From assembly GCA_963664435.2 (NCBI GenBank), contig CAXXKM010000003.1, positions 32,001 to 96,000 of the forward strand: a DNA stretch of 64,000 nt, in the 5' to 3' direction. Shown piece by piece: positions 19,530 through 42,619 of this stretch (positions within the stretch are counted from its first letter, which is position 1; each line of letters starts with the position of its first letter). This DNA is from Longimicrobiales bacterium (GTDB lineage: Bacteria; Gemmatimonadota; Gemmatimonadetes; Longimicrobiales; Gaopeijiaceae). The notes below the pieces were generated by a model. That model was given only the letters and a program-made list of their open reading frames with translations, did not search any database and had not been told where the DNA came from. A program made the position numbers and the translations under genes.

Positions 19530-19530
19530 C

Positions 19531-20709: not shown

Positions 20710-20796
20710 AGTGATTGACAGGTTGGGTCGGTTGGAGTGTCTGTTATCAGACTTGCCGGTAGGGTAGCCTGGTTGTAGTGCGTGTGGGCATTGCGA

Positions 20797-23739: not shown

Positions 23740-26505
23740 TCAACGCGGGACGGCCAGGATCATCGCGTCCAGAAGGCGCTTCTCGCGGCTCCAGCGGGGA
23801 TAGAGGGCGGAGAGCGCGTTGGCCAGCCGCAAGAAGGCGGGTCCCCGATCCTGTTCGGCCGCGATCAACTTCCTGAGCGCGTTCGCGTGACCGGTTGCCT
23901 GAAGGAGCATGCCCGCATGGACACGATCGAGCGTGGTCGCGCCGGACCGCTCCAACGCGTCGTCAGAATCAAGGATCGATCTGGCCCCGCGACGACGGCG
24001 TGGACTCGGTGTCGCCGTGGTTTCCCAATCGGGGAAGAGAGCCGGTTGCAGGTCCGCCTGCGGATCCCTTTCGATCCAGTCGGCCGCCGCGTCCGCGCCG
24101 TCCCGGCCGAACAGCTCATCGGCTCGCTCCGACACGGGTAGGAGGCGCACGACACCCTTTTCTTGGCCAATCACCCGACCGGTCCATCGGTCGAGTCCGA
24201 TGCCCATAGGCTGCGAGAACCGTCGCACCACGTCGTAAGGAAGTTTGAGCCCTTGCGCGGCCGCCTTGGCCGCGGCCCGCTGGGCTTTGGCGTCCTTGGC
24301 CGAATCTTCCTGATCGCCTTCAGTGCTCTGGTACGTCCAGAGAAACAGGGCGGTGAGGCGGGCATCCTCTTCGAGCGTGCCCGCGTCGGCCGTGCCGAGC
24401 ACCTGTTCGAGCGCCGCCCGTCCCACGACCTGCCAGACCTTCTCCAGAAAATGGGGCAGGCCGACCTCATTCCCCTCAGCGGTCTCGACGGCGCGATAGC
24501 GGCTGAACACCTCAAGCGCTGGCCCGACGCAAGCGAAGACCAGGTCGGCACCGCGTATGCCCTCGTCCTGGAGCCGCTTCATCCATGCGGCCACGCGGAC
24601 CGGCAATTCTCGGACGACATCGTACCAGTCACCAACCGGGGCGTCATCTGGGCGTGGGCGGCAAATCAAATGCACGCTGGTTGCCAGTGAAGCTGACTCT
24701 CGCGCTCTGAGGCGCGCTTTCCTTTCGGTCGCGATCGGCCAAGATCCGGTGATTGTCCACCCGCCACGAATCATGCCGGAAAGCAGCGCCTCCCATCCTT
24801 CTGTTGTCTTGTGTGCGAAGACCACGGAGCCGACGCCGTCTTCTCGCAGGACGCGGCGGCCTTCTGCGAAGGCCTTCGCCATGGTCTCCTCGAACCAGTT
24901 ACCATCCTTCCGACATCCGTCGGCATCTCGCCTGGTTTCGTCCTGTACTGCTTCGCCGACCTTCGGGGAGAGAGGGTTTTCGGGATCGAACGGATCCAGG
25001 AGGAGGGGGTGACCTGGCTGCGTCCGCTTGAGCCAGACCAGGAAGAAATCCGACAGATCCGAATAGGGGATTGCATCGTAGTACGGTGGATCCGTAAACC
25101 AAAGAGCGCACGTCTCATCCGGGAGGGAATGGCTCGCCGCGTCAACGTTCTCGGCTTGCCCTTGCCCCCTGACGGCTGCCAATGAGAGTGACGCTTCCGC
25201 AGCTTTGTCGGTCACGTCTGCAAGGCCGCCGGCATAGGGTACCAAAGGGTACATCTCGGGGTAGTCCCAAGACATGGGTAGGGTCTGCATTCCGAATGCC
25301 CCCGCCACGGTTTCGCTCCCCCGGTGCCATTTTGCGAGGACGTTGCTATGGCGCAGTAGCTTGCCCATCGCCAGGGCCAGCAGTCTGGCGACGACTTCGT
25401 GTTCCGACTCCACCGCAGACATCAAGAGAGTGACCAGCACCGCCTTCTGACGCGCCGTAAACAGGTCGCCCCATTGGAGCATGCCGTAGCGCTGGACGCT
25501 GAACGCTCGCCCAGCGCCTGACCCGCCTCCGGCGGGGGTAGGCTCGTCCGGCAGCGGACGGAGTCCCTTTCGGCCGCCGACCTCCCACTCGTCCAGTATC
25601 CGGGCGACCGCCGTCTGTGCCCTGCGCACGGGCGCATAGTCCGCGTCCGTGGGCAGTCGGTAGTGCCGCCATCCCCGCTGGCCCGGACGAAACGTGACGA
25701 CCGCCATCATGCGTGCTCCGCCGATCCGGTTGCCTTCCTCGTCGAAGACTGTGTCGGCGCCGCCCCGCTGGGCTGCCAACTGCGACCGCAGCCGCTCCTT
25801 CGGCATCACCGCGCGACAGCACGGGCACGTTGCCTTCGCGTAGGACACCGTGCCGGGATGAACGTCACCTTTCGTCTCCGGCTCAAAGATCTCGAAGGCG
25901 ATCCGCGGCGAAGTGCCAGCGGCCCGTTCGACCGCGAGCCGTAGCGCACGCTTGCGCTTCGGCTTGCTGCACAGCCAGAAGGATTGCGCCAGCGGAATCT
26001 CGGCACCGCAGTTCGGCGACTCACAGCGCACCGTACGCGCCCACAGGTAGGCTAGCGGCGTCGCGCCGTTGGGCTCGGGCGGGTAAAGGTCGACGAGTCC
26101 CTGCCGAGCCTTCTGCTCGACCGATTTCGCGGCCCGTCGCAAGTCCTCGGCCAGCCCGGGGCCGTAGCGCGGAATATCCTCCAGCATGGCCTTGAGGATC
26201 AAGCACGCCACCGGGTTGAGATCGCTGGCGAAAGCCCCGCATCCGAGCCGAAGGGCCTCGAGCGGAATCGATCCACCACCCGCGAACGGGTCCACCACCA
26301 GCGGTGCTTCGTCTCCGTGTGCAGCCTTTACGAGCGCCTTGGCCGTCTCGATCCACGATTGCTTCGCCGAGTGATCCCAGCTTGCAAAATCGGCGATGAA
26401 CTTGAGGAGGATCCGGCGAAGCCCCTCGTCCGTCCCGAGCTCTGCGGTCCACCCAGAGGGGCGCCCGCCCATGCCGAGCAGAATCCGCCGTGCCTCCTTC
26501 CCGAA
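23740..26505 (-). pseudogene. DUF1156 adenine DNA methylase, 3' portion (interrupted by IS1595 element)
   Basis: 'DPFAGGGSIPLEA' and 'TDPPYYD' motifs; joins in frame with 42620-42834 when the IS and one TSD copy are removed (...CPPAFGK|EARRIL...). Confidence 0.93.
26498..26505 (+). repeat. Target-site duplication, left copy (TTCCCGAA)
   Basis: Identical 8-mer at 42620-42627 immediately outside the right TIR. Confidence 0.95.
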
Positions 26506-26528
26506 GGGAATTATACGCCTGCCTTGAC
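26506..26528 (+). repeat. Left terminal inverted repeat GGGAATTATACGCCTGCCTTGAC
   Basis: Exact reverse complement at 42597-42619. Confidence 0.97.
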
Positions 26529-26552
26529 AGCAACCCCGGATCATGTTATTAT
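26524..26552 (+). promoter_or_regulatory. Putative sigma70 promoter of the transposase overlapping the left TIR
   Basis: TTGACA (26524-26529) -17 bp- TATTAT (26547-26552); RBS GAGGGG before ATG 26589. Confidence 0.65.
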
Positions 26553-26588
26553 CAATGTACGCTAAGAGCAACGCAATGAGGGGGTTAC

Positions 26589-27475
26589 ATGGCGGCGAAG
26601 GGACCGGGCAAGCACCACCGCAAGGGCATCACGATGCCGCAGGTCGCGACAATGTTCGCGACCGAGGAAAAGGCAATCCGCTGGTTCGAGTCGTGGGTCT
26701 GGCCGGACGGCGAGATGGCCTGTCTCCGCTGCGGTTCCGTGAACTGCTATCGGGTAAAGTCGGGCAAGCCGATGCCGTACCGCTGTCGGGACTGTCGGTC
26801 GTATTTCTCGCTCAAGACCGGGACGCTCATGGAACAGTCGAAGCTTCCGCTTCGGCTCTGGGGCTGGGCGATCTATCTGGAACTGACGAGCCTCAAGGGC
26901 GTTTCGTCTATGAAGCTGCACCGCGATCTGGGCGTTCGGCAGGCCACGGCGTGGTTCATGTTGCACCGCATCCGGGGCGCGTTCGCGGACATGGCGTTGA
27001 CGTTCGACGGCCCGGTCGAGGTGGACGAAGCGTATTTCGGCGGCAAGCGGAAGAACATGAGCAACACGCGCCGGAAGGAACTGGAGGGCACGGGCCGCGG
27101 GCCGGTCGGCAAGCAGGCGGTGGTCGGCATCAAGGATCGGGCGACGAAGCGGGTTGCCGCGCGAGTGATCGACCGGACGGACGGCGAGACGCTACGGGGT
27201 TTCGTGGACGCTCACGCGAGCGACGGCGCGAAGCTGTACACGGACGATGCCACGGCCTACCGGGGCACCGACCGGGAGCACGAGACGGTCAAGCACTCGG
27301 CAGCCGAGTACGTCCGGTATCTGGAAGGCGAGACGGTCCACACCAACGGCGTAGAGAGCTTCTGGGCCGTGTTGAAGCGAGCGCACAAGGGTGTCTACCA
27401 CCGCCTGTCGCCGAAGCACCTGCAAGCCTACGTGGACATGTTCGCAGCACGCCAGAACGTGCGCGAGATGGACAC
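26589..27475 (+). pseudogene. IS1595-family (ISXO2-like) DDE transposase, 5' portion
   Basis: Zn ribbon 'CLRCGS...CRDC', 'VEVDEAYFGG', 'YTDD', 'HTNGVESFW'; ends abruptly after 'REMDT'. Confidence 0.93.
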
Positions 27476-27950
27476 ACGGAGCACCTGAGGTCCGGATCAC
27501 GGCAGTAGATCTTCTAACTACATACAGGACTGCACGATCTGCGTTTCCTGTCGTTGTACTGGACCTTGCTGGACCGTGCCGCCAAAGCGGGAAAAACGTA
27601 CTTGAATGGCGGGACTCCCGCGCCCGCCCCGCCTCTGACCAAGGTCCCGGAAGCCGACGTTGCCGACCGTCTCCCTCACCGGCAATCGGATCGACCTCGA
27701 CGGCCAAGACGGCCAGCCCGCGATCGGCGTGGATCGCTATCATTCGGCGGTGGGCGGAGCACCGGACGCGGACACCGATGCGCCGACCCTCCGATGGGAT
27801 GCATCATCGCGACGTCGCCCGGCCCGGCTCCCTGAACGGAGAGGCTTGTGGAAGCGAACCGGGCGGTTTCGCTAGATTCCCGGGCCGCCGAGGTTCGGCG
27901 GCCCGAGTGACGACACGCGGCCCGACGCCTTGCCTGCCCGGAGAAACCCG

Positions 27951-28865
27951 ATGCCCGGCTGGACACTTGAAGACATTCCGCCTCTTCGCGGCCGCACGGC
28001 CGTCGTGACCGGAGGCAACACGGGGCTCGGCTTCAGATCCGTTCGCGAGTTGGCCCGCAGGGGCGCGCGGGTCTTCCTGTCCAGCCGCAGCGCGGCCAAG
28101 GGGCAGGCGGCCGTCGGAGCGGTTCTGTCCGACCTGCCGGGCGCGAGGGTCGAGGGCTTCGCGCTGGACCTCACCGATCCGGTGGGCATCGAGCGCTTTG
28201 CCGGACGCGTCGCCGCCCGAACGGGTCGCCTCGACATCCTGCTGAACAACGCGGGCGTGGTGAATCTCGCCGAACTGCAACGGACGCCGCTCGGCCACGA
28301 GATGCACATGGCCACGAACCACTACGGCCACTTCCTGCTCACGGGACATCTGTTCGGGCTGCTGGTGGCAACGCCGGGCGCGCGCGTGGTCACGGTGACC
28401 AGCGGCGCGTACCGGGCCGGCGTCATCGACTTCGGCGATCTGGACTGGCGCGGGCGTCCGTACAGCCGCGGCAAGGCGTACGGCGACAGCAAGCTGGCCA
28501 ACCTGTTGTTCGCGCGGGAGCTTCAGGGACGGTTAGACGCCGCGGGCGCGGCGGCCCTGTCGCTCGCGGCCCATCCGGGCCTGACCGGGACCGAGCGCCA
28601 GCAGTCGGTCGGAATCGGCGGACGGCTCGCCCGCCTGTTGGCCGCCCCGGTCGATGTCGGCGTGCGTCCACAACTGCGCGCCGCCACCGATCCGTCGGCC
28701 GGGAAGCTGGACTTCTTCGGACCCCGGTTCGGGCTGAGGGGACCGGCCCGCCGCATCCCCGTCCGCGGACCGGCCCGCAGCGACGACTTGGCGCGCCGCC
28801 TCTGGAGGGTCACCGAAGAGGTGACGGGCTTCCGCTACGCGGCCGCACCGGGCAACCCCGCGTGA
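27951..28865 (+). CDS. Short-chain dehydrogenase/reductase (retinol DH/WWOX-like oxidoreductase)
   Basis: 'TGGNTGLG', 'LLNNAG', 'YGDSK', 'AHPG'. Confidence 0.92.
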   Translation: MPGWTLEDIPPLRGRTAVVTGGNTGLGFRSVRELARRGARVFLSSRSAAKGQAAVGAVLSDLPGARVEGFALDLTDPVGIERFAGRVAARTGRLDILLNNAGVVNLAELQRTPLGHEMHMATNHYGHFLLTGHLFGLLVATPGARVVTVTSGAYRAGVIDFGDLDWRGRPYSRGKAYGDSKLANLLFARELQGRLDAAGAAALSLAAHPGLTGTERQQSVGIGGRLARLLAAPVDVGVRPQLRAATDPSAGKLDFFGPRFGLRGPARRIPVRGPARSDDLARRLWRVTEEVTGFRYAAAPGNPA

Positions 28866-29140
28866 GCTACGTGGTCACCGTGCCTTGGAAGTAGCAGAAG
28901 CCGCTGGCCCTCGTCCAGAACGTGATCCGCGTCTTCCTGTCGTCTCGAATCTTCAAGTATCGAACTGTCAGACTGCACTTGTTGGTGTCCGGGTCGTAGG
29001 TCCGACGCTCACAGCCTTCCAAGGACTGCATCAAACCCATCGGGAGTGAGGCCAGCGCTTCGGAACGCGCGAAGGCAGCCTGACCGTTCTCGGAGCCAGA
29101 CTGGCCTGGAGATGGGGGCCGGCGGCGGCCCCGCAACCAC

Positions 29141-29950
29141 TCAGCCGACCGATCCCTTCTGTCTGGCTCCCGGGTCGGGAGCCACGAGCGTGTCAGGAGT
29201 TACCCGCAACGGCAGAAGGGAATCCGGCGCGACGCTCCGGATGCCGCTCTTGTAGGGATCGCGGAGTGTGGGCATACACCCTCGCTCCAAGCGCTTGCGG
29301 CCGATCCGTCCCGAGTAAAGAAAGGCGCCTCCGACTGCGACCGAGATTGCAGCGACGCCCACCTTTTCCCCGGAAGTCCGTTCCGCGTCCCCCACACTCC
29401 CCGCAAGGCCGCCCAACAGCCACACTGACCCACCTAAGACGTCCCCTGCGAGAGGGAGCACATCCCGAAATCTCAAGTCCCTGCACCAGGCCCCATCCGC
29501 CGGAATTGTCGGAGACGGCGCCGCTCCGGGGCTCAGTTCTTTCAGGCGCTGGCTCTGCCACCGCCGGTGCAGCGCGCGGCATTCGTTGATGCGTTCAAGC
29601 CCGGTTTTGGCTTGATTGTAGCCGGCAACCCCTCCGGCAAGTCCCATGCCCGCACCGGTGAGCGCCGCTGTCACCCCCTCCCCTCCCGGTTCCAATCCAC
29701 CCGCCGCAGCAACGGCAAGGCCCGTCACGCCGACGATGCCCAGCAATGTGGCACCCGCAAGATAGGCTCCGGGCAAGATCGAAGTCGTCGTGCATTGGGG
29801 CGCGCTCGCAGCCAAACCGGGCGCGGCGATTCCCGTTCGAGGCGGTTCCTGAATGAAGAGTGTGGAACAACCGCTCAGCGAGGCCGCCAGTGCGAGCAGC
29901 ACCAGAACGCTGGCCGGTCCACGGGCGGCTTTGATCATCGACATCATCAT
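29141..29950 (-). CDS. Hypothetical membrane lipoprotein
   Basis: Lipobox 'LSGC' after a hydrophobic signal; two Cys-flanked pairs of Gly/Ala-rich TM helices. Confidence 0.6.
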   Translation of the reverse strand: MMMSMIKAARGPASVLVLLALAASLSGCSTLFIQEPPRTGIAAPGLAASAPQCTTTSILPGAYLAGATLLGIVGVTGLAVAAAGGLEPGGEGVTAALTGAGMGLAGGVAGYNQAKTGLERINECRALHRRWQSQRLKELSPGAAPSPTIPADGAWCRDLRFRDVLPLAGDVLGGSVWLLGGLAGSVGDAERTSGEKVGVAAISVAVGGAFLYSGRIGRKRLERGCMPTLRDPYKSGIRSVAPDSLLPLRVTPDTLVAPDPGARQKGSVG

Positions 29951-30061
29951 GAAATGCTTCCTTGCGCTGTCGGGCAGTTGGAACACTTCGTCCCGGCGAT
30001 TCGGCCCGCCCGACAACTCAACATGTGCGTTTTGCCCCGTGTCGGGGCCTGCCGCAGCCCA

Positions 30062-30700
30062 CTACCCGATCGGGATGTTGATCCCCGCTTGGATGGCCAA
30101 GTGCCGCGTCATGGCGTCGTCGTCCTCGGCCACCGGCGCAAGGCCGAGCGAGTAGAGCACGTCAACGCCCAAGCGCATCCCGGCCATGGGGAAGTCCGCG
30201 CCCGCGCCCAGGGCGATCCCGTAGTCCAGGGCCTTGGTCTCAAGCTCTGCGTCGGAGCAACTCGAACTGATGTTGACGCCCTCCCCCGGAGCGGAAGCCT
30301 CCAGATTGCAGGAGAGCCGCAACGCGATCCATGGACCGGCCATCACGCCCACGAACAGTCCGCCCTCGGCGTGTGTGCCGATGCGCGCCAACCCCGAGAA
30401 CTGGGCGTAGTCGATGTTGAGCCCGACGCTCAATCCTTCGAGCTCATCGGCACCGAACCCTCCGCCTTTCTGCACGTAGGCGCCGCCGACCCTGATGTCG
30501 AACAGTCCGGGTCCGGGAATGGTCAGGTCCGCGCTCACGACGATGCCGCTGCGGGATCCGGAATCGAGACCCACTTCCTCGACGGAAACGGAGGCGAAGC
30601 CGGCTCCGCCCCGCAGACCGAGGGTCTTCTGGGCCGTCAGGGGAGCGGCGATCAGAATGAGGCCGGCAAGAGCCAGCAGGATGGGGATGCGTTTCTTCAT
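30062..30700 (-). CDS. Outer-membrane beta-barrel (porin family / PorT-like) protein
   Basis: Signal peptide, 'GLRGG', 'YVQKG', 'DYAQF', alternating beta strands. Confidence 0.8.
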   Translation of the reverse strand: MKKRIPILLALAGLILIAAPLTAQKTLGLRGGAGFASVSVEEVGLDSGSRSGIVVSADLTIPGPGLFDIRVGGAYVQKGGGFGADELEGLSVGLNIDYAQFSGLARIGTHAEGGLFVGVMAGPWIALRLSCNLEASAPGEGVNISSSCSDAELETKALDYGIALGAGADFPMAGMRLGVDVLYSLGLAPVAEDDDAMTRHLAIQAGINIPIG

Positions 30701-30730
30701 CGTTTGCCTTTCATTTCAGGGGGTTCTGCT

Positions 30731-33700
30731 CTAGCGAATGCCCGAGGACGAGGAGATTGTCCCGCCTGTCACCGCGCGCCTCACCGGACTGGTTTCATCG
30801 TCTTGCGGCTCGGTGCCCGGCTTGACGCGCAGGACGCCCTCGACCGGAAGGCGGAGCGCGGACGGATCGTCGCCGGGGCGCGGGCGGATGACCGTCCATT
30901 CCGCTCGCGTAGAGTGCAGCAGGCCATCCCATTGCGGTTCGACCGTCAGGCTGCCGCTCGACTGCCTGCTGGCCCGGATGCTGCCCTGGGTGACCCGCCG
31001 GTTCACGATTTCGCACCCCGTGCTGGTCAGACAGCTGTAGCGGATGTTGCCCTCGACGATGTACGAACTGGTGCCGGTGAACTCCACGGTCGCTACGCCG
31101 CTGGAGTACCGGAAGGAAATGCCGCCGCCCGAGGTGTCCGGAGTCCAGAATCCGGTCGGGAGGGTCTCGATCGTCTGCCCCGTCGTGTACGTCGTGTCGC
31201 TGCCGCCACCGTTGGTCCGTATCGTGACCCTTATCGCCGACGAGCAGTTGTTGCTCGTGTCCGATTCGCCGGAAACGGCGTCGACACATTCCCCGACATA
31301 GACGGTGCCCAACGGAGCACCGGCGTCGATCTCGATCAAGGCCTCGCCGCTCACTTCCTCGGACGGGTTCAGGGAAGGCACCGCAGCGGCGCCGACGTCG
31401 GTGTCGTTGGTGGAAATGGTCGCGTCGGCCGAAATCAGGGTCCGTACGAGGGTGGCCGCCGCCGCCTCGTCGCCTTGGTTGCGCACCGTCAGTTCGTACG
31501 AAAAGCTGCTTCCGCGCGACACCGTGACGCTCGATCTGGAGAGACTCACCACCAGATCGGGGCCGCCGGACCCGCCGACGGTCACGCGGACGCCCCGCGA
31601 GCAGTTGTTGGCCGTGTCGGATTCGCCGGACACCGCATCGATGCAGATGCCGAAGTAGAAGGAGCCTGCGGTCAGGTTCGCCACGGTCCCGGTAATCGTC
31701 CGGCTCTGCCCAGCGGCGAGGCCGGCGAAGGCCGTTCGACCGATCTCGTCGTCCGTCGTCGAGATTGTCGAGTTGCCTGACTGGTAGAGGCGGATCGTTG
31801 TGGCCGGCGCCGGCGCGTCGCCGGTGTTCCGGATCGTGAAATCGGCCTGAACCGACCCGCCGACCGACCCCGTCACCGAGGTCGGCGTGACATTGGTGAA
31901 CTCCAGATCCGGCGCGCCGGAACCCGTGACCGTCACCCTGACACCGGTCGAGCAGTTGTTGCCCGTGTCGGATTCGCCGGAAACGGCGTCGGCGCAAATC
32001 CCGAAGTAGAAGGTGCCGGAGGCTTGGCTCGACAGGTTGACCGTTCCGGTGATTGTCCGGCTCTGCCCCGCCGGAAGCCCAGAGGTTCGATCGCTCGCGA
32101 TCTCCGTGTCACTGGTCGATATGGATGGGTCGGACGATTCGTAAAGGCGGATCGTCGTGGCGGGCGCGGTCGCGTCGCCCGCGTTCCGAAGCGTGAATGC
32201 GGCCTGCACCGACCCGCCCGGCGACCCCGTCACCGATGTCGGGGTGACGCCGGTGAACTCCAGATCCGGCGCGCCCGCCGACTCCACGTCGACCCGGATG
32301 TCCTGCGCCGCGCTGAGGCCCTCGGGGTCCTGGGCTGTAACCGTGATCGTCGCGGTCCCGGGACTCGCAGCTGTGATCGTCACGGTCGAGTCCGACACCG
32401 AGACACCGGCCACCGTCCCGTTGGACGACGAGGCCGAGTAGGTCAACGCGTCCCCGTCAGGATCGCTGAAGTACCGCCCGGCGTTCACAGTGGCACGGCG
32501 GCCCGCTTCGATGGACTGGTCCGGGACGGTGCCCTCCGGGCGTGGCGGCCGGTTCGGCTGGGGCACCGTGACGCTCACCTGCTGGGTCGCCGTCGCCGGC
32601 TCGTCGTCACTCGCCGTGATCGTGACCGTGGCCGCTCCCGGTCCTTCCGCAATGATGGTGACCACGCTGCCCGCCACGCTCGTGCGCGCAACCGACGGGA
32701 CCGATGAGGCGGCCGTGTAGCTCAAGTCGTCGCCGTCAGGATCGCTGAACGAAGCGGACACGTCGAGGGTGGCCGACTGGCCCACCTCGATCATTTGCGG
32801 CTGAAGCGTTCCCACTGCCACGGGCGGCCGGTTGGACACCGTCACGCTCACCTGTTGAATCGCGCTTGCCGGCTCGTCGTCGCTCGCCGTGATCGTGACC
32901 GTGGCCGTTCCCTTTCCTTCCGCGGTGATCGTGACCACGCTGCCCGCCACGCTCGTGCGCGCAACCGACGGTGCCGATGAGGCGGCCGTGTAGCTCAGGT
33001 CGTCGCCGTCCGGGTCGCTGAACGAAGCGACCACGTCGAGAGTGACGGACTGGCCCACCTCGATCGTTTGCGGCTGAAGCGTTCCCACCGCAACAGGCGG
33101 CCGGTTGGGAACCGCGAACGGGAAGGACTGCGTGGCCGAGAGGCCCCCGGGATCGCGTGCGGTCACCGTCACGGTGGCACTGCCCTTCGCCAAAGCGGTG
33201 ACCGTGACCACCGAACCCGCAACGCTCACGCCCGCCACCTCGGGATCCGAAGGGCTCGCCGTGTAGGTGAGCGCTTCCCCGTCCGGATCCGTGAAGTACT
33301 CGGCCATGTCGACCGTCGCGATGGCGCCGACCCGCTCGGTAACGCCGGGCGGCGTGCCCCTCGGCTGAGGCGCCCGGTTGGGAACCGTGACCGTGAAGCT
33401 CTGCTGGCCCTGGAGCCCTCCGGGGTCACGGGCCGTCAGCGTGACCGAGGCGCTGCCGGGCGCAACCCCGGTTACGGTGACCGAGGTGCCGGAGACCGAG
33501 GCGGAGGCGACCGAAGGGTTCGACGACGCGGCCGCATAGACCAGCATGTCGCCGTTCGGGTCGTTGAAGCAGGGGGTGACGTGGGACGTCTCGCCGACAT
33601 GCACCGTCACCTCCGGGATCGGGCCGCAGGGATCCGGACCCAAGGGGTTCTCGCACGCCACCACCCAGAGTGCCAGCAGGATTGCCGTCCGAAGCGCGAA

Positions 33701-33774
33701 CCGGGCCGGACGCCTTCTAAGTACAGCCGCTACATATGTTTCGGGGGGGGGGGGGTAGCTGAAGCGAGGGTCAT
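30731..33774 (-). CDS. Surface lipoprotein with five Ig-like repeats and three CARDB-like domains; plausible ATG (33774) is out of frame at a C13 tract
   Basis: Lipobox 'VVAC', repeats 'F.DPDGD.L.Y.A.SS', CARDB 'PDL...GESDT.NNCS'; start uncertain (ORF track extends to GTG 33922). Confidence 0.8.
32561..33106 (-). repeat. Two near-identical tandem 273-bp (91-aa) Ig-domain repeats
   Basis: 'NRPPVAVGTLQPQ.IEVGQS.TLDV.ASFSDPDGDDLSYTAASS' starts at 33106 and 32833. Confidence 0.9.
33743..33755. repeat. G13/C13 homopolymer in the 5' end of the Ig-repeat gene
   Basis: TC-GGGGGGGGGGGGG-TAG seen directly. Confidence 0.95.
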
Positions 33775-33928
33775 GTTGTGGTCCAGTGGTGGCAAACGAC
33801 GCTTGGTGGTCCGGGGGTGGCGCAACGCCCCCAAACCGGTACCCACTACAATCTACAAGCACTCGGTGGGCTTCGCATCTTGTCGCCCGCGAACGACCCC
33901 GGCCCGGATCGGATCGGCGCACCGTCCA

Positions 33929-36022
33929 TCAGGGGCGAATGATCCCCACCACCCGGCCATGCCGGTCGCGGACCTCGATGGGGCCGCGGATCACGTCTTC
34001 GCCGAGAGGGACGGCGCGGCTTCGATGCGCACGCAACGCGGCCGCGCCCGGAAGACGGTAGGCGTCGGCGAGGTCCGTTCGCGCGGCGTACCCCATATCC
34101 GAGAGCGACGCGATCGTTACCGCGCTGAGGGGCATCACGGGCTCGGCGCTCGGATTCATCAGTTCGTTGCCGAATACGTTCTTGCGCCAATGCACGTCGT
34201 CCCTGCCGCGGCGGATCCCCTTGTTCTCCACCGGGACCTTGGAACCGGCGGTGTAGGAGGTCCCGCCCGCTTCGTCGAACGCCCGGATCGCAAGCGCTCC
34301 CGCGAAATGCGTGTCCACCTCCCGCTCCACAGGCAGCGATGGATTGCGCAGGAGCCCGAACCCGTCCCACAACGGGCCGATGCCGAGCACATGGCCCATC
34401 TCGTGGAGAATCACGGATTCCAGAATCCCTTCCGCCTCCATCCAGGCCATGTCCGCCGCGTCAAACTCCATCACGCCGAACCATGGAAGCATCGATCCCG
34501 CGCGAGTCCCGCACGGTCCGGCTCGACCGATCGTCCCGCCGACGCCGTCTATCTCCTCGACTGACGCCACGATCATCAGGTCATCGACGACACTCACGTC
34601 TTGCTCGTGCGTCCTGGCCGGGGATCGGCACGTGACAACGCCTTCCGGCACCGGCATGTCCGGCAACTCCGTGTCTTCCAGTATCTCCATCCACCGCGCC
34701 GCCATTCTCTGGAACGCCTTCTCTTGCGCGGCCGTCAGCACCGTGGCGAAGCGGATTTCGATCTGGAAGGACCTAGGGTCCCCGGGGCCGCCTGCCACCG
34801 TCGCTTGGAAGGACAGCGCGGCCGATAAGTCGCCCGAGTCTGAAGCCAGGACGGTGACCGTGACCCGCCCCTCGCGCACTCCCCAAAGCAGCAGGGTCTC
34901 TCCACGCACCTCCACCGACGCGACCGCAGAGTCCGAAGACGATGCCACATAGGTCAACGTGTCCCCGTCCGGATCCGAGAAGCGGCCCGCAAGATCCAGC
35001 CGGATCGTATCGCCCGCACCCAAATCGACATCCGGCAGGGCACCGGTCGTAATCGGTGCCCGGTTCCGAGCTTCCGCGCCGAACATGTGAGCCGCCGTCA
35101 GGCCGTCGGGGTCGCGCGCGGTCACCGTGATCGCCGCCCGCCCCGCCCCGAAAGCGGTCAGGCGCACGGACTCGCCCAAGACGGTCGCCGCAACCGCGCC
35201 GGGACTCGACGACGACGAAGCGTAGCGCAGCGGCTCTCCGTCTGGATCGGCGAAAAACGGCGCAAGGTCGATCACGCGCGTCTCTCCGCGCCGCATGACT
35301 TGACCCTCGATCACGCCCAGCGCGACCGGTTCCCGGTTGGGTACCTCGAAACCGAACACCTGAACAGCCGCCAGGCCCCCGGGATCCGTCGCCGTGACGG
35401 CGACGGAGGCGGTGCCCCTCGCCCGCGCCGCCAACGTCGCCCGATTGCCCGAGACGGCCACGCCCGCGACTTCGGCGTCCGAGACCGTCACCCGGAAGCG
35501 AAGGTGCTCGCCGTCCGGCTCCTCGAACCAGGACGCAAGATCGACGACTACCTCCGCGCCCGCCTCGACCCTTTGCTCCGGGACCGTGGCCACTGCCCGC
35601 GGCGCCCGGTTCGGCACGACGACCTCGAAACTCTGCTGATCTCCAAGCCCCGCCGGATCGGTGGCCGTCAGCATGACCGTCGCGGTGCCCGGGGCGATGG
35701 CGCGCACCGTCACCTCCGCCCCCGCAACCGAGACCGTGGCCACCGAGGGGTTCGATGACCCGACCGCGTAACTCAACGCATCGCCGTTCACGTCATTGAA
35801 GCAGGCGGTGACGCCGGACGTGTCCCCCACGTGGACCGTCAACTGGGGCAGCGCACCGCAAGCCGCGGGCGCCAGTGGGCTATCGCACGCGGCGACCAGT
35901 ACCCCGAGGGCGAGGACGACCCATGCTTGGGAGCGCATGCTGCCTCGAAATCTCCTCCGGGAAGGCGAGCGAGGGAAGGACAATGGCAAGGGAAGGACAA
36001 TGGCAGGCTCCGTCCGCGCCAT
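33929..36022 (-). CDS. Surface lipoprotein with four Ig-like repeats and a C-terminal leishmanolysin-like (M8-type) Zn metalloprotease
   Basis: Lipobox 'VAAC', Ig repeats, 'ILHEMGHVLGIG', distal 'HW' and 'ELM' Met-turn; start 36022 or 35938. Confidence 0.82.
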   Translation of the reverse strand: MARTEPAIVLPLPLSFPRSPSRRRFRGSMRSQAWVVLALGVLVAACDSPLAPAACGALPQLTVHVGDTSGVTACFNDVNGDALSYAVGSSNPSVATVSVAGAEVTVRAIAPGTATVMLTATDPAGLGDQQSFEVVVPNRAPRAVATVPEQRVEAGAEVVVDLASWFEEPDGEHLRFRVTVSDAEVAGVAVSGNRATLAARARGTASVAVTATDPGGLAAVQVFGFEVPNREPVALGVIEGQVMRRGETRVIDLAPFFADPDGEPLRYASSSSSPGAVAATVLGESVRLTAFGAGRAAITVTARDPDGLTAAHMFGAEARNRAPITTGALPDVDLGAGDTIRLDLAGRFSDPDGDTLTYVASSSDSAVASVEVRGETLLLWGVREGRVTVTVLASDSGDLSAALSFQATVAGGPGDPRSFQIEIRFATVLTAAQEKAFQRMAARWMEILEDTELPDMPVPEGVVTCRSPARTHEQDVSVVDDLMIVASVEEIDGVGGTIGRAGPCGTRAGSMLPWFGVMEFDAADMAWMEAEGILESVILHEMGHVLGIGPLWDGFGLLRNPSLPVEREVDTHFAGALAIRAFDEAGGTSYTAGSKVPVENKGIRRGRDDVHWRKNVFGNELMNPSAEPVMPLSAVTIASLSDMGYAARTDLADAYRLPGAAALRAHRSRAVPLGEDVIRGPIEVRDRHGRVVGIIRP

Positions 36023-36264
36023 GCAAGTCGCTCGCGGAACGTCAGTCGCGCGGCTCACGCCCTCCCCTCTTCTATCGCCAAGCTGATCTGTCCGCAGCGG
36101 TCGCCGAAGACACCGGAGGTCGGCCCTTGAAAGCATGATCCGGGTCGCCGGGGCCAGCCCCGCCAGCGGCTCGGATGGCCGCATACTCCGAAACCCGGGC
36201 GGGGCAGACGGCGTAAGGATACGAGGCGGCTTCGTCCGCAAGGGCCGGATCCCCGGTGGGCCAG

Positions 36265-36296
36265 CGGCGAACGCAACGGTTCGCCGGGGTTTTTTT
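36265..36296 (+). terminator. Intrinsic-terminator-like hairpin
   Basis: CGGCGAAC-gcaacg-GTTCGCCG followed by GGG and T7; no + strand gene directly upstream. Confidence 0.45.
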
Positions 36297-36657
36297 GGCG
36301 CTCCCGCCTCTAGAGCCGTACTGAAACGCGCAAACGACATGGGGGGTCAATGCGCACCTTGGCGATCCGGCGCTACGCACCGGCCTTCCCGCTTATCCGC
36401 TGGCGCGGCAACGCTTTTCGGCCTCGCCGCCCGTGCGCCCGTGGCGCACTGGCCGCTCAAGGCGTGACCGTAGCGACCCGGCAGTCCGAGGGCCTGCTAC
36501 GGGTTCGGGGGCAGGTGTGTTTGCGCACCCCTTCCCCGACCCCTTACGGGTCGCTACCGAACCAGCGATCCCTGCGGGAAGGCAGTACAGCCCCCGTCCC
36601 GGTGCTTGTCTGCACTCGAGCACCGAACCCGTCGCCGCCGGGAACGTCAATCGGGGC

Positions 36658-37113
36658 TCAGAACGAAATGTAACCGCCCATTTGGAAGAGCACGATGTTG
36701 GTATCGTCGGACCCGTCTCCGACGTGGAGGATGAAGCGCGCTCCGTAGCGCCGTCCGAACGTCAGGCTCGCACCGGCGGTCGGCGAAACGCCTCCGCCGT
36801 CGTACTCGATGCCCGCGCGCAACGCCGGGCGAACGACCCAACCGGAACGCCCGAGGAGGACCGACGCGCCGATCCGGTTGGCGGACCCGGCCAAGTCGGC
36901 GCACCGGTAGTGCTCCACCATCCCGTACAGCGACACCGGCCCGGCGACGCGCCCGCTGACGCCGACGTAGTGTCCGGGACACGCGACGCTGTTGCCGCCG
37001 ACGATCCCGGCTTCGAGAACGAAACGGCTCGGCACTTCCCGTGCCTCGTCCGTTTCCTGCGCCTGAACCTGCGAAGGCACCAGAGCCAGACAAGCCAGCA
37101 GCAGCTTTCGCAT
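36658..37113 (-). CDS. Small exported outer-membrane beta-barrel-like protein
   Basis: Signal peptide 'MRKLLLACLALVPSQVQA', RBS AAGGAG, C-terminal 'GYISF'. Confidence 0.7.
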   Translation of the reverse strand: MRKLLLACLALVPSQVQAQETDEAREVPSRFVLEAGIVGGNSVACPGHYVGVSGRVAGPVSLYGMVEHYRCADLAGSANRIGASVLLGRSGWVVRPALRAGIEYDGGGVSPTAGASLTFGRRYGARFILHVGDGSDDTNIVLFQMGGYISF

Positions 37114-37428
37114 CTCGATGCTCCTTCCGCCGGTTCACGTGCTCCGGAGGTGGCCATTCCCTCCGGCCGGGTCCCTGTCGCTACCACCCGCCAGGAATGC
37201 TCGCCGCACTCGGCTTCGTTGACAAGCAGTATCCGCGAGGGAGCGGGTAGCGACCCGTCCCGGCGTTCCATGCGAACTCCGCGAGCCGGTCGGCGAGTCG
37301 CGGCGCTTCCCGATTCTCGACTTCCGGGCCATGATTCGTGGTGCTTGCGGACGGGCAGCTCCGAGAGCTGTTCGCCCTCCTCAGGCCGCCAGGGCCGCGA
37401 AGCTGTTGTCCCTAATCGTGAGAACCGA

Positions 37429-38472
37429 ATGGAATCCACAAAGGGCTTGCTCGGAGGGGCGCGATTGATCTGCGGACTGCTCGTGTCGCTCGTTGCCGGA
37501 TGCGTCACGGGACCCGGCGAGGCGGAACCGGTTGTCGGCCTGATCACCAAGACCGAGGACAATCCGTTCTTCGTGACGATGAGGGAGGGCGCAATCGAGC
37601 GCGCCGGTGTACTCGGCGTCGAACTGCGCGCCTTCGCCGGGAGATTCGACGGGGACACGGACACTCAGGTTCGGGCCATCGAGAATCTCCTGGCCGCGGA
37701 CGCGAGGGGGATTCTGATCACGCCGTCGGATCCCGTGGCGCTGCTGGACGCGGTCGATCGGACGCGGCGGGCCGGCGTGCTCGTCATCGCGCTCGACACG
37801 CCCTTCGATCCGGCGGACGCGGTGGACGGAACGTTCGCCACCGACAACTTCCGGGCCGGGGAGTTGATCGGCATGTGGGCTCGGGGCCGGCTGGGTGCTT
37901 CCGCCGCCGACGCGAGGATCGCTACGCTGGACGGCGCGGGGACGCAGGTCACGGTCGAGGTCCTGCGCAACCAAGGCTTCCTCGACGGCTTCGGCATCGA
38001 CATCAAGGACCCGAACAGGATGTACGACGAAGACGACCCCCGCATCGTGGGGAGCGCCCCCACCATGGGCACCGAGGAAGGCGTGCGAGCCGCCATGGAA
38101 CGCCTGATGCGGGATGATCCGGCGATCAACGTGGTGTACGCGATCAATGAACCGGCCGCCGCCGGAGCCTCCGCGGCGCTCCGGGGGCTGGGCGTGCAGG
38201 ACGATGTTCTCATCCTCACCATCGACGGTGGCTGCGAAGGTGTCCGGAACGTGGCGGCTGGCGAGATCGGGGCCACGTCGATGCAGTATCCACTGAGAAT
38301 GGCCTCCCTAGGAATCGAAGCCGTTGTAGAGTTCCTGACAACGGGCGCAAGGCCTGAGAACACGCCCGGCCTGGATTTCCACGACACGGGCGTAACCCTG
38401 GTCACCGACGAGCCGGTTCCGGGGATCCCGTCCATCGGCGCTGAACAGGCGTTGAACGAATGCTGGGGATGA
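37429..38472 (+). CDS. Sugar ABC transporter substrate-binding lipoprotein (FrcB-like), orphan
   Basis: Lipobox 'VAGC', 'LITKTEDNPFFV', 'ATDNFRAG', 'DGGCEGV', ends 'CWG'. Confidence 0.9.
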   Translation: MESTKGLLGGARLICGLLVSLVAGCVTGPGEAEPVVGLITKTEDNPFFVTMREGAIERAGVLGVELRAFAGRFDGDTDTQVRAIENLLAADARGILITPSDPVALLDAVDRTRRAGVLVIALDTPFDPADAVDGTFATDNFRAGELIGMWARGRLGASAADARIATLDGAGTQVTVEVLRNQGFLDGFGIDIKDPNRMYDEDDPRIVGSAPTMGTEEGVRAAMERLMRDDPAINVVYAINEPAAAGASAALRGLGVQDDVLILTIDGGCEGVRNVAAGEIGATSMQYPLRMASLGIEAVVEFLTTGARPENTPGLDFHDTGVTLVTDEPVPGIPSIGAEQALNECWG

Positions 38473-38797
38473 CCGTCGACGTGGCCGAGTCCTTAAGGCG
38501 TCGCAGTCTGCCTTCCTGCAAGGATTGATGGCCGGGAGTGACCCCGAGGCGGGGGTGGGATGGCGTGCACATCCCAACCATCGCCGTGGCGTGTGAGGCA
38601 TGCCGAACACCGGGGTCACTCCCGCCACGGCCGCACACTCTGGAACGGCACCGCCGTTCGTGCGGCCGTGGTGCAACCGCAACGCGGGCAGCCACATACG
38701 GAGTCCTTGCCCGCGCACATGGACTCGGTGATTCCGTGCACATGCACCCCGATGTCGATGTGCACGCGCGGTACGCCACCGGCCGGCCGATCAGAAG

Positions 38798-38887
38798 TCA
38801 AAGTCTCAAGCGCATGTAGGCATGCTCCTCGCGCACGCCGATCGTGCGGGTCCTGCGCTCGGCCTCGGGTTTCCGGGGACGAACCAT
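38798..38887 (-). pseudogene. Truncated MobC-like N-terminal stub
   Basis: 'MVRPRKPEAERRTRTIGVR' after RBS GGGGAGG, same position relative to the oriT-like hairpin as mobC in element 1; stops after 29 codons. Confidence 0.55.
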
Positions 38888-38929
38888 GTCCGGGCGGCCT
38901 CCCCTTGGTGGCGCGCGGAACGTCGTTGC

Positions 38930-38988
38930 GGGGGTCCGGGGGATACCCCCGGCCAGAGGTTTTCGTGAAACAAAAACACATCTGGCTC
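38930..38988 (+). promoter_or_regulatory. Putative oriT 2 (orphan)
   Basis: CCGGGGG-ata-CCCCCGG hairpin then GCCAGA-GGTTTTcgtgaaacAAAAAC-ACA-TCTGGCT; same architecture as oriT 1. Confidence 0.6.
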
Positions 38989-39227
38989 CACGGAAACCCC
39001 GCAAACGCGGGGCAGAGTCTCGACCCACCGAGCGGCCGCTCACCCCCACGACGGCGACCGCAACCACCCAACCAGTCGTGATCGCGCCCTCGGCGGGGGC
39101 GGGTCGCGCATATACGCACCTCCCCCGGAAAGGTAACGCATCGGTCCGGGCACGACTGGCGGAGGAGCTTTCTCTCCGCGACCTTTCGTTCGCGCAGATC
39201 GTGCGGTCCATCACCGAGAGGAATCGA

Positions 39228-40391
39228 ATGATGGCACGCACGAAACGAAGTCGGCGCTCCTACGGCGCCGGTGAATGGGGCCGGAACCGGGTCAGGGTGT
39301 TCCCCGACCGGAAAACCGGCCTCTACCAGATAGAGTGGCGAGAGAACGGGCGAAGGCTCACCCGGTCGCTTGGACATCGCGATTGGGCTCGCGCGAAGCG
39401 GCAGGCCGACGAGGCCGCCGCCGATTTCGCGACGCCGGAGATGAACGGCAAGAAGGACGCCGAGCCCGAGCCGCTCACTCTGGGTACGCTTTTTGAAATC
39501 TACGGAGAGGAGGTGACGCCCTCCAAAACGGAGCGGGTCCGGTGCCGGGACAGGACCGCGACAACCATGTTCCTCCAGTTCTTCGGCGGGGACCGGGACC
39601 CGGCGACTCTGTCGCGGCGCGATTGGGACCGGTTCATCCAGGAGCGCCGCGCCGGGAGGATCGGCCCCAGCGGCAAGCCCGTGTCCGACCGGATGGTCGA
39701 ACACGACCTGACGTTCCTGGTCGCGGTCCTCAACTGGGCCGCAAGGTCTAGGGACGACCGGGGCCGCCTGCTCCTCGACAGGAATCCGCTGAAGGGCCTC
39801 AGGAAGCCCACGGAGAAGAACCCCAACCGGGTCGTCCTCACCGACGACGAGTACCGGGCGCTGCTCGGGGTCTCTCGGCGGGTCGATTGGCGATTCCACG
39901 TCGCGCTGGTGCTCGCCCACGAGACGGGGCACCGGATCGGGGCGATCCGTCAACTGAGGTGGACGGACATCGACCTTGAGGGCAGGACCATCCGGTGGAG
40001 GGCCGAGCACGAGAAGACCGGTTACGAACACACCACGCCGGTGACCGACGAGGCGGTCGCGGCCTTGGAGGAGGCACGGAGCTTGGGCGCGGGAACGGGC
40101 GACGCTCCAGTGCTGCCCGCGGCGGAGGATGCCTCCCGGTGCATGGGCCGCGCATGGGCCTACCGCCTGTGGTGCAGGGCGCAGACCCTCGCGGGGCTGG
40201 AGCCGAAGCGGGGGCGGAGTTGGCACTCGCTGAGGCGCAAGTTTGCCAGCGACCTCATGGAACTGCCGCTCAAGGTGCTCTGCGAGCTTGGCGGCTGGAA
40301 GAACGCACACACGGTGCTCAGGTGCTACCAGAGGCCCGACGCGGGACGGCTCAGGACGGCTCTGGAAAGCCGCCCGAGGGCTCGCGCCTGA
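39228..40391 (+). CDS. Tyrosine recombinase/integrase 2 (close paralogue of integrase 1)
   Basis: MMARTKRSRRSY start, 'ETGHRIG', 'HSLRR', 'GGW', 'RCY'. Confidence 0.93.
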   Translation: MMARTKRSRRSYGAGEWGRNRVRVFPDRKTGLYQIEWRENGRRLTRSLGHRDWARAKRQADEAAADFATPEMNGKKDAEPEPLTLGTLFEIYGEEVTPSKTERVRCRDRTATTMFLQFFGGDRDPATLSRRDWDRFIQERRAGRIGPSGKPVSDRMVEHDLTFLVAVLNWAARSRDDRGRLLLDRNPLKGLRKPTEKNPNRVVLTDDEYRALLGVSRRVDWRFHVALVLAHETGHRIGAIRQLRWTDIDLEGRTIRWRAEHEKTGYEHTTPVTDEAVAALEEARSLGAGTGDAPVLPAAEDASRCMGRAWAYRLWCRAQTLAGLEPKRGRSWHSLRRKFASDLMELPLKVLCELGGWKNAHTVLRCYQRPDAGRLRTALESRPRARA

Positions 40392-40494
40392 GATTTCGCA
40401 ATCGGCGGGAATCAAACAGCGGTAATTTCGTCCGCCGAATACCTAACACAAACAGGCACAACACGATACAAACTTCATAGTGCTTGCTGGACAC

Positions 40495-40594
40495 GCTCGC
40501 CCAGATTCAGCACGTCGTTGCCGCGATGATCGGTCGGCGGCTCATGTACCGGGATCTGGTGGCCGACACGGGCCGGTCGGCGGCAGCAGTCTAA
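40495..40594 (+). pseudogene. IS1595 transposase, 3' portion
   Basis: Reads (MDT)LAQIQHVVAAMIGRRLMYRDLVADTGRSAAAV* in frame with 26589-27475; 'GRRLMYRDL' is a typical IS1595 C-terminus. Confidence 0.88.
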
Positions 40595-40688
40595 ATCCTG
40601 CCCCAACCCCTTGCGCGGGCGCAAGGGCTGGCGGCACTCTGGGCGCAATAGGTTTGCAACACAGACCAGACCACAGGAGCCCGGAATG

Positions 40689-40717
40689 TTGACCTGCGCC
40701 GCGCGTGTCCGTAGGCT
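40689..40717 (+). promoter_or_regulatory. Putative sigma70 promoter for the passenger methylase
   Basis: TTGACC -17 bp- TAGGCT. Confidence 0.5.
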
Positions 40718-40726
40718 CGCGGAGGG

Positions 40727-40758
40727 ACCGCCCCACCGCCCCACCGCCCCACCGCCCC
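40727..40758 (+). repeat. (ACCGCCCC)x4 tandem repeat in the methylase leader
   Basis: Four exact octamers seen directly. Confidence 0.92.
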
Positions 40759-40785
40759 AGTTAGATCCCGCGCCGGATCGCGGCC

Positions 40786-42393: not shown

Positions 42394-42410
42394 CCCGGAA
42401 GGCACCACCA

Positions 42411-42614
42411 ATGAGCGACAAGCGAGAGAAGCCGTTCGATGTGCGGGCGACCAACCCGCGCTACGGCGGCGCGATGATGAGCGACGTAGTCCGGGCATTG
42501 TTCCGCCCGCTCGATCCGAAGGTGCGGGAGCGCATCGCGGCCCGCGAAGCCCGCCGGTCTGTCACGCCGGAGAAGGTGGAGGATGGAGAGTCCGGCGTCA
42601 AGGCAGGCGTATAA
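42411..42614 (+). CDS. Small hypothetical IS passenger protein; stop codon lies in the right TIR
   Basis: 67-aa ORF 17 bp after the methylase stop, filling the space to the TIR. Confidence 0.5.
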   Translation: MSDKREKPFDVRATNPRYGGAMMSDVVRALFRPLDPKVRERIAAREARRSVTPEKVEDGESGVKAGV

Positions 42615-42619
42615 TTCCC
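42597..42619 (-). repeat. Right terminal inverted repeat (followed by TSD 42620-42627)
   Basis: GTCAAGGCAGGCGTATAATTCCC then TTCCCGAA. Confidence 0.97.

Follow-up and report, generated by a model that had tools for sequence, protein, structure and literature searches.

A tyrosine-integrase element inside an IS1595 transposase gene of a Longimicrobiales bacterium: a probable secondary-site insertion

Related systems and the locus

The integrase of phage mv4 is reported to require identity of the overlap while tolerating variation in the flanks, and any overlap is said to function when attP and attB carry the same one (10.1101/2023.11.06.565760). Strict overlap matching combined with loose flank recognition, which we propose here by analogy, is the known lambda/mv4 mechanism. 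The element described below is similar to these heterobivalent integrases, as presented in the same source, in having an exact 7-bp overlap, predicted loose half-sites, putative arm-type repeats at both ends and the catalytic residues. Unlike mv4 and lambda, described with one main site each, its family is represented in a single genome (G000, the source of the window, that is, of the whole 64-kb stretch analysed) by 20 paired elements that carry 15 different cores, many of these elements lying within protein genes.

SGI1 and NBU1, IMEs with secondary att sites, are described as high-specificity elements that use an alternative site, as ours does, and SGI1 can fill both sites in one cell, which is likewise the case in our genome (PMC5704250, PMC2297512). 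The second site of SGI1 has a mismatch in the overlap, whereas the overlap of our element is exact; in addition, unlike SGI1 and NBU1 as described there, our element has no Pfam-detected relaxase, and its target is disrupted rather than restored. Nesting in a gene of another mobile element has been described for helper-embedded PICIs (PMC10111431), and for IME_oriT and the IMEs in Tn5252 traG (PMC5704250). In these accounts the mobile target is used repeatedly and clade-wide, whereas our element is mainly found in a chromosomal permease gene, an IS accounting for one of eight insertions. Similar to the iOriT (oriT-only integrative elements) as characterized in 10.64898/2026.01.13.699239, our element combines an integrase and cargo with the lack of a relaxase, has relaxase-bearing relatives in the genome and shows apparent interspecies transfer; unlike them, it has only a candidate transfer-origin block, unmatched upstream of ten MobA/VirD2 relaxases. 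The host IS resembles IS1595-family members with passenger genes, such as tISCpe8 and MTnSag1, in its TIRs (~25 bp there, 23 bp here), 8-bp duplication, DDE transposase and passenger gene; unlike in the accounts of these two, its transposase is split by an integrase element (PMC5704250).

Boundaries and contents of the element

The element, of the tyrosine-integrase type, is 13,019 bp long, carries TGGACAC at both ends, and interrupts the transposase gene of an IS1595 copy (Table 1). A previous sequence-only reading of this DNA had pointed to the direct repeat and to an integrase ending about 100 bp from its right copy; both are present, with 96 bp between the integrase stop and the core. As the heptamer occurs 12 times on the forward strand of the window and 544 times on both strands of the genome, the repeat by itself is not beyond chance. 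We take it as real because removal of the interval restores a single reading frame across 26589-27488 / 40490-40591, because the element occurs a second time, with both cores unchanged and the flanks different, and because both cores are found at the fixed end offsets of the family. Together, the two copies in G000 delimit the direct repeat to 7 bp. Genome-wide, an exactly matching left end was identified for 13 of the 20 right ends; with the core shifted by 1-3 bases, only 0-1 matched. Together with the restored frame, this supports the proposed strand exchange over a 7-bp overlap inside the IS1595 gene.

The rebuilt target, GCGAG-a-TGGACAC-g-CTCGC, has exactly the symmetric sequence that had been claimed; a 5-bp inverted repeat at equal spacing is seen at one of the 544 present-day TGGACAC sites (background 0.2%). 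The GTGCT...AGCAC arms, said to surround the core of the rebuilt element junction, do exist, but one lies 3 nt and the other 4 nt from the core, which puts them one base out of register, and the G011 orthologue has lost AGCAC. Owing to this misregistration and loss, a role as binding sites is improbable, and we rejected them as integrase arms. Contigs from four sequencing runs over 26300-40700, in which rare forms are dropped, contained neither the circular junction suggested earlier nor an empty-site joint.

Table 1. Features of the element, its host IS and the surrounding island (positions in the window)
Feature	Position	Strand	Remarks
Outer tRNA-Pro island, same integrase family	9104..48518	-	contains IS and element; cores TTTGGGA at 9104, 48512
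Island integrase	9193-10365		
Island relaxase	10458-12080		
DUF1156 gene, 3' part	23740..26505	-	split by IS; 5' part right of 42620
IS1595 left target duplication and TIR	26498..26528	+	8-bp duplication 26498-26505; 23-bp TIR 26506-26528
IS1595 transposase, 5' part	26589..27488	+	zinc ribbon and full DDE domain; PF12762 E 9e-37, PF12760
Left crossover core TGGACAC (attL)	27469..27475	+	25 nt from family left-end anchor
Conserved left end	27476..27620	+	half-site ACGGA; motif GCACGATCTGC (27532); two GCGGGA repeats (27587, 27609), predicted arm-type sites
Cargo: short-chain dehydrogenase	27930..28865	+	PF00106
Cargo: 291-aa ORF	29141..30016	-	no Pfam or NCBIfam family
Cargo: outer-membrane beta-barrel protein	30062..30700	-	PF13568
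Cargo: Ig-like/CARDB repeat surface protein	30731..33922	-	PF17963, PF02368, PF07705
Cargo: Ig-like repeats and M8-like metallopeptidase domain	33929..36340	-	PF17963, PF01457
Cargo: ORF, 3' half a periplasmic sugar-binding protein	36433..38472	+	PF13407 at aa 368-635
Non-coding block, candidate transfer origin	38830..39010	.	nine occurrences in G000, most of them shortly upstream of a family integrase
Inverted copy of left-end motif GCACGATCTGC	39194..39204	-	just upstream of integrase start
Tyrosine integrase, intact	39228..40391	+	387 aa; PF00589 E 8e-19
Conserved right end	40400..40487	+	two GCGG(G/T)AAT repeats (40405, 40419); TAA anchor; 41 nt to core
Right crossover core TGGACAC (attR)	40488..40494	+	
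Transposase 3' end, detached	40495..40594	+	last 32 codons and stop; matches intact homologue
IS passenger gene: N6/N4 DNA methylase	40786..42393	+	weak Mrr-type nuclease domain; PF01555, PF04471
IS1595 right TIR and target duplication	42597..42627	-	TIR 42597-42619; duplication 42620-42627

Residues R236, K263, H333, R336, W357 and Y367 of the integrase are unchanged across 31 family members. The single sequence retrieved nothing from the PDB, while the integrase profile retrieved the catalytic domains of Xer and lambda integrases. The structural model, with an overall pTM of only 0.43, has full-length lambda integrase as its best fold match (E 1.4e-8, 358 columns) and folds residues 22-66 into three strands and a helix (pLDDT about 73-77); the Pfam arm-binding domain gave no match. 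The GCGGGA-type repeats, paired and conserved at both element ends, are the predicted arm-type sites. For the ORF at 36433..38472, the true start is probably further downstream. Pfam detected no relaxase family among the scanned ORFs of the element, and none of the ten relaxase loci of G000 is located inside it. The block at 38830-39010 had no match in the regions upstream of the ten MobA/VirD2 relaxases of this genome and was rejected as a transfer origin of that type.

The IS1595 copy has a perfect 23-bp TIR pair and the 8-bp duplication TTCCCGAA, with the total length of 16,114 bp including the element. The 5' part of its transposase matches NF033547 with 183 bits (cut-off 75), the ORF comprising 296 own residues followed by three element-encoded residues and a stop. 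The detached 3' end had been proposed to be homologous to IS1595 C-termini, and an intact homologue of 328 aa from G006 indeed has the same C-terminus, identical to the translation of 40490-40591 in 34 of 34 residues. Five positions of the lost C-terminus are invariant among 13 intact homologues, and the model of an intact homologue has a helix at 296-307, within the lost part; the fold search with the transposase yielded distant DDE folds only, with no solved IS1595 transposase among the matches. Since the insertion removes the last 32 residues of the transposase, the IS is likely immobilised until the element excises.

These observations bear on the idea of a dedicated hitchhiker, evolved to target IS1595 genes and spread by a transposase acting in trans, which we regard as very improbable. 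The precision of the insertion, the intact TIRs and target duplication, and the DDE domain retained in the truncated transposase agree with it, but the invariant positions have been lost, and the G000 assembly (96% complete) has no PF12762 match and no TIR pair other than those of this IS, so that no second transposase was found to move the 16 kb in trans. The 16-kb composite itself is present in one copy.

The permease gene and the IS1595 sites

The second copy of the element (G000:C2:141268-111564) differs from the one in the IS at one base in 13,026, when a nested 16,679-bp sibling element, present in the C2 copy only, is set aside. It interrupts an NCS2 permease gene (PF00860; TIGR00801) at GCGCGC-TGGACAC-GCTCGG, and the 12-mer TGGACACGCTCG is common to both insertion sites. 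In the orthologues from G005 and G011, both ends lie within the identical permease codon. Among 19 genus genomes, the element lineage was detected in three; the permease site is intact in 12, absent from the three occupied genomes, and has no match in the other four. Compared with ours, the element in G005 shows 95-99% identity and the flanking permease halves 92-94%; as the identity of the element exceeds that of the permease halves, this fits transfer and repeated insertion.

A metagenome scan for left junctions with the TGGACAC core yielded five loci (L071-L075, known from left junctions only): two in the permease gene, two in another integrase gene at one site, one in a zinc-dehydrogenase domain, and none in an IS. 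Over 150 nt, the end of L073 is closer to other lineages. The same junction had no matches in viral contigs. With L072 and L074 counted once, as their flanks are identical, and G005 counted once, as its right end occurs three times in a 99.5%-identical block with a single left end, there are eight distinct TGGACAC-core insertions, five of them in the permease codon and one in an IS. Within the collections searched, the att sites of this element lineage thus point to a permease gene rather than to further IS genes, and the IS-targeting reading fails because a near-identical copy and the orthologues occupy the permease. The claim does not stand, and a striking headline is removed with it.

Insertions at the same codons in other copies of this IS, which the sequence-only reading had suggested looking for, were not found either. 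At 18 of 25 other genus IS1595 loci the insertion codon is readable; all 18 are empty, nine with the exact 12-mer, five of these in G006. The remaining seven are not readable by the site pattern, one of them (L052) showing an empty core. Four additional non-duplicate loci are also empty, and hence 0 of 22 other readable sites are occupied, only one of which is a fair test: L095, a remnant apparently in G005, is the sole core-matching site in another lineage-bearing genome, and the resident integrase there is itself split. Records titled Bacteroidota, Gammaproteobacteria and Dehalococcoidia also contain related sites, again empty; the scan of viral contigs for the IS C-terminal site gave no matches.

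The availability of such sites is what a dual address would build on: the permease gene would be the main site, and the conserved E-(L/M)-D-T-L-A-Q codons of the IS1595 clade would be a recurrent second one, offering a landing pad that is itself mobile and present in many copies when the element enters new hosts. We consider this unlikely. The exact 12-mers and the related sites from other phyla are in its favour, as is the fact that the IS site corresponds to the right half of the permease site in symmetric form, and among the four copies known from genomes the one in the IS alone keeps an intact integrase. Against this, none of the 22 IS sites is occupied, none of the five metagenome left junctions is in an IS, and the lineage is seen in only three of 19 genomes. 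There is an equally small chance of two standing addresses, the permease and the cross-phylum IS1595 C-terminal codons, with the insertion serving as a reversible off-switch of the transposase and the integrase being kept intact there, while sibling insertions silence the integrases of the permease copies.

Judged by its flanks, the IS site is among the genome's best look-alikes of the permease site. Of its 10 flank positions, 8 agree with the permease site, a score equalled by 4 of 540 other TGGACAC sites; with the permease variant of L071/L075, 9 agree, and none of the 540 scores as high. Read outward, TCTCG and GCTCG match the family half-site consensus RCRGR at only 2/5 and 3/5 positions. 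The five permease paralogues in G000 have no TGGACAC at the homologous codons, and all are empty. Two further exact copies of the 12-mer in G000 are also empty, so the 12-mer is not sufficient.

That a copy of the C2 element is found in the IS might also be due to misassembly or to homologous recombination involving repeats of the family. The two copies are almost identical, the run contigs reach only 23 letters past the left core (the bridging rule being 31), and none of the listed pieces covers the right junction. Yet both junctions are base-exact and the frame is restored, only 12 bp are common to the IS and permease sites, the nested sibling makes the structures of the copies different, and run contigs from X3 and X5 pass from the IS into the element, although these runs may be the source of the assembly. 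We regard both possibilities as very improbable.

We conclude that the element is, with good confidence, one usually housed in a codon string of a nucleobase permease, and that the IS1595 insertion is likely a very recent secondary-site landing at an identical 12-base address. A secondary-site insertion had been one of two options in the sequence-only reading, and it is the better supported one, given the near-identical permease copy, the permease being the commonest site, and the empty IS sites elsewhere.

The integrase family and its addresses

The family is genus-wide, with 34 integrase matches in G000 and 6-60 in 17 of 18 relatives; its end geometry is fixed, and the 7-bp crossover is specific to the lineage. 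Core identity tracks the integrase clade: the core is the same in 25 of 28 integrase pairs at ≥95% identity, compared to 3 of 3290 pairs below 80%, the counted pairs being kin. Cores outside G000 were placed in the tree, a quick IQ-TREE reconstruction, by geometry alone, and three tRNA-linked rows were excluded from the core statistics, as geometry had misplaced at least one core. Across the family, the same core is often paired with different flanks.

Some family members use anticodon loops. The core of the outer island is the anticodon loop TTTGGGA of tRNA-Pro, where the sequence-only reading had noted a stem around 7 nt, and this use is what recommends a tRNA-targeting element inserted secondarily at an anticodon-like palindrome. 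However, the core TGGACAC is not within one mismatch of any of the 55 tRNA loops (the nearest differs at 2/7 positions), and tRNA mimicry was rejected; the site mimicked is the protein-coding codon string of the permease. There is no tRNA at either element end. The nearest relatives of the TGGACAC clade have cores of the protein-gene type, TGGTAAC and TGTCCGC, and the tRNA-linked integrases, 68-69% identical, are found elsewhere in the tree. We give this explanation almost no weight.

For the secondary landing, a mechanism may be proposed after the lambda/mv4-type integrases. The N-terminal domain of the integrase would bind the repeats in both element ends, and the protein would contact short, loosely specified half-sites beside the core. 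Strand exchange would be completed only if the 7-bp overlap of the circle is identical to the chromosomal one, and because of this requirement the element's own heptamer would set most of the address. In the IS1595 transposase gene, as in the permease gene, the codons read TGGACACGCTCG, which would allow landing there. For the whole nest, the outer tRNA-Pro island would be a more plausible vehicle than the IS.

The chemistry is likely ordinary and the family unusually versatile; no prior description of this family was found in the literature searched, which includes few subscription journals. The locus captures a natural case of off-target integration: over 13 kb a single base separates the two copies, which are located in unrelated genes with 12 common bases, and five empty paralogues serve as negative controls. 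With 15 cores in 20 elements of one genome, the share of the address held in the 7-bp overlap as opposed to the protein becomes directly testable, which is relevant to how integrases gain new sites and to retargetable integration tools.

Element copies in two unrelated genes

The insertion of the element into the IS1595 transposase gene is real. Both TGGACAC direct repeats and the adjoining integrase lie where the sequence-only reading had placed them, the integrase stop being 96 bp ahead of the right repeat. The left flank is IS1595 transposase, and the proposal that the peptide on the right is its C-terminus was borne out by 34/34 identity with an intact 328-aa homologue in another genome of the genus (G006). 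Contigs from two sequencing runs (X3 and X5) cross from the IS into the element, extending 23 letters past the core (the 7-bp crossover repeat); this is short of the bridging rule, and the runs may be the source of the assembly. The heptamer repeat alone means little, since both strands of the genome holding the window (G000) together contain 544 copies of TGGACAC.

The same genome carries a second copy; apart from a 16,679-bp sibling (another element of the same family) nested in that copy, the two differ at 1 base in 13,026. The second copy's cores are likewise TGGACAC, and on either side of it lies one half of an NCS2 nucleobase permease gene. Comparison of the copies limits the repeat to exactly 7 bp. 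The two targets are unrelated genes; besides part of the left flank, they have TGGACACGCTCG in common.

The IS1595 composite is 16,114 bp long, has an 8-bp duplication and a methylase passenger, and splits a DUF1156 gene. It is enclosed, with the element, by a tRNA-Pro island of 39 kb that belongs to the same integrase family and encodes a separate integrase and a relaxase. The island also holds a DUF499/DUF1156/SNF2-type defence operon, adjoined by SIR2 and HerA genes; the DUF1156 gene split by the IS is that of this operon. The G006 copies of this IS (L087-L089) are ∼1.46 kb long without a passenger, while DNA akin to the methylase passenger is present in a G017 relative (L091). The truncated transposase retains its DDE domain and has lost 32 residues, among them a predicted helix and five positions invariant among 13 intact homologues; it is probably inactive. 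The sequence-only reading had proposed that a transposase in trans could move the whole 16 kb. In G000 (assembly 96% complete), we found no IS1595 transposase or TIR besides those of the window, and therefore nothing is at hand to do so.

Positions of the features (window coordinates unless a contig or locus is named)
Feature	Position	Remark
Three-level nest	9104-48518	tRNA-Pro island > IS1595 in DUF1156 gene > element in IS
IS1595 TIRs	26506-26528, 42597-42619	23 bp, perfect
TGGACAC direct repeats	27469-27475, 40488-40494	
Conserved non-coding block	38830-39010	inverted repeats; 9 copies in G000, most of them ahead of a family integrase
Integrase ORF	39228-40391	
IS1595 C-terminus	40490-40591	
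Second element copy	G000:C2:141268-111564	
Siblings splitting permease-resident integrases	G000:C2:129343-112664; L080/L081 (G005); L085/L086 (G011)	
Palindrome-using elements	G000:C1:1470914, C1:1358773, C2:843133, C2:315782, C3:409592	
Family right end directly followed by left end	G000:C3:768-839	contig start; circle- or tandem-junction-like, 3 bases short

Insertions in the permease and in IS1595

Left junctions with the TGGACAC core were found in 3/19 genomes of the genus: G000 (twice), G005 and G011. In the latter two, both element ends lie within the same permease codon. The intact permease site is present in 12/19 genomes and was not found in these three. The G005 element is 95–99% identical to the window element and its permease halves 92–94%; the G011 element differs in cargo. 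By sequence comparison, this would fit transfer and repeated insertion. A metagenome scan yielded five further left junctions, none in an IS: two in the permease (L071, L075), two at one site inside another integrase gene (L072, L074), and one in a zinc-dehydrogenase domain (L073). Over 150 nt, the L073 element end is closer to those of other lineages, and its core may be convergent. The gene at L072/L074 encodes an unrelated integrase (PF22022), another mobile-gene target hosting a TGGACAC-core element. With G005 and L072/L074 each counted once, 5/8 insertions are in the permease and 1/8 in the IS.

Among 25 other IS1595 loci of the genus, 18 are readable at the insertion codon and all 18 are empty, nine of them with the exact 12-mer; this control is weaker than it appears, as the sole core-matching site in another lineage-holding genome is a truncated remnant, L095, which seems to belong to G005 and where the resident integrase is split. 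A genome-contig scan gave nine loci (five duplicates of G006 copies and four new), all empty. The claim that the element targets IS1595 thus did not hold, and a dedicated IS hitchhiker is very improbable, repeated use of the IS site having been sought and not found. A dual address, the permease and the IS1595 codon both being standing sites, has a small chance. The element is likely permease-targeting, and the window copy a recent secondary-site insertion, the other alternative of the sequence-only reading. Its likening of the site to a tRNA anticodon was rejected: none of 55 tRNA loops came closer to the core than two mismatches.

Over the 10 nearest flank positions, the IS site agrees with the permease site at 8, a score reached by 4/540 other TGGACAC sites, and with the L071/L075 permease variant at 9, reached by 0/540. 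The 12-mer is not sufficient, because two exact 12-mer sites are still empty. The five permease paralogues in G000 have different heptamers at homologous codons, all empty. The symmetry seen earlier is there: the left flank of the IS site, read outward (TCTCG), resembles the right flank GCTCG common to both targets, and this may help insertion; however, it is not required, because the permease site is less symmetric and is used too.

In all three permease-resident copies (G000, G005, G011), the element's own integrase is split near codons 47–56 by a sibling; only the IS copy has it intact. These siblings belong to two different clades, with cores CGAAGCG (twice) and TTGGACA (once). With the CGAAGCG sibling of G000 in place, the integrase remnant still has an in-frame ATG; its product would be missing the N-terminal domain. 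G005 contains three 99.5%-identical copies (L081, L082, L083) of a block of at least 6 kb, made up of a sibling integrase, an integrase remnant and the 3′ half of the permease gene, but only one matching left end, a duplication or an assembly repeat.

Proposed mechanism

Catalytic residues, exact 7-bp repeats and conserved paired repeats in both ends are present. We suggest that the element behaves as integrase elements of the lambda/mv4 type do when they use a secondary site (10.1101/2023.11.06.565760, available part), the IS copy resembling secondary-site insertions of SGI1 and NBU1 (PMC5704250, PMC2297512, available parts). By analogy, it would excise to a circle, and the integrase would bind core-type sites loosely while strand exchange would need strict overlap matching, as the available part of 10.1101/2023.11.06.565760 demonstrates for mv4 integrase. 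The integrase is predicted, at low model confidence (pTM), to have an N-terminal three-strand-plus-helix domain and a lambda-integrase-like fold; it had no match to a Pfam arm-binding domain (arm-binding tyrosine recombinases as a group are described in PMC8138268, available part). One incoming element may have taken both sites, the sibling striking the C2 copy later; the C2 copy may have been duplicated via excision and reinsertion before the sibling insertion; or the sibling may have excised temporarily, restoring the integrase. Contigs from four runs showed neither a circle nor an empty site, which cannot show absence. We recognised no relaxase in the element, and its candidate transfer origin did not match regions upstream of 10 G000 relaxases. 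Helper-embedded PICIs (PMC10111431, available part) are of the mobile-element-targeting kind; the element is not, as a search for recurrent insertion at the IS site found none.

A family with many addresses

Integrase matches number 34 in G000, 6–60 in 17/18 other genomes of the genus, and at most five, mostly weak, in 12 genomes outside it. Among Atlas clusters, the nearest are mainly from Gemmatimonadota, and the runs include a sponge metagenome. End geometry is fixed, the core lying 41 nt past the right anchor and 25 nt ahead of the left. Strict anchors gave exact pairing for 13/20 right ends (0–1 when the core was slid); looser anchors with seven allowed offsets gave 20 paired elements of 4–50 kb with 15 distinct cores in G000. 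A quick tree covering 90 integrases (60 being best-scoring relatives, not a random draw) groups the four TGGACAC rows in a single clade (SH-aLRT 100). The same core was shared by 25/28 integrase pairs of at least 95% identity and by 3/3290 below 80%, with kin non-independent, cores outside G000 taken from geometry alone and three tRNA rows omitted. A shared core is often flanked differently among members. The palindrome AACCCTSA-CGTWACG-TCAGGGTT, in either orientation, is used by 5/20 paired elements and ∼20/90 tree integrases. In G010 (L004), a family element is inserted into a copy of the conserved non-coding block. We found no description of this integrase family in the literature searched; the family stands out for its many heptamer addresses.
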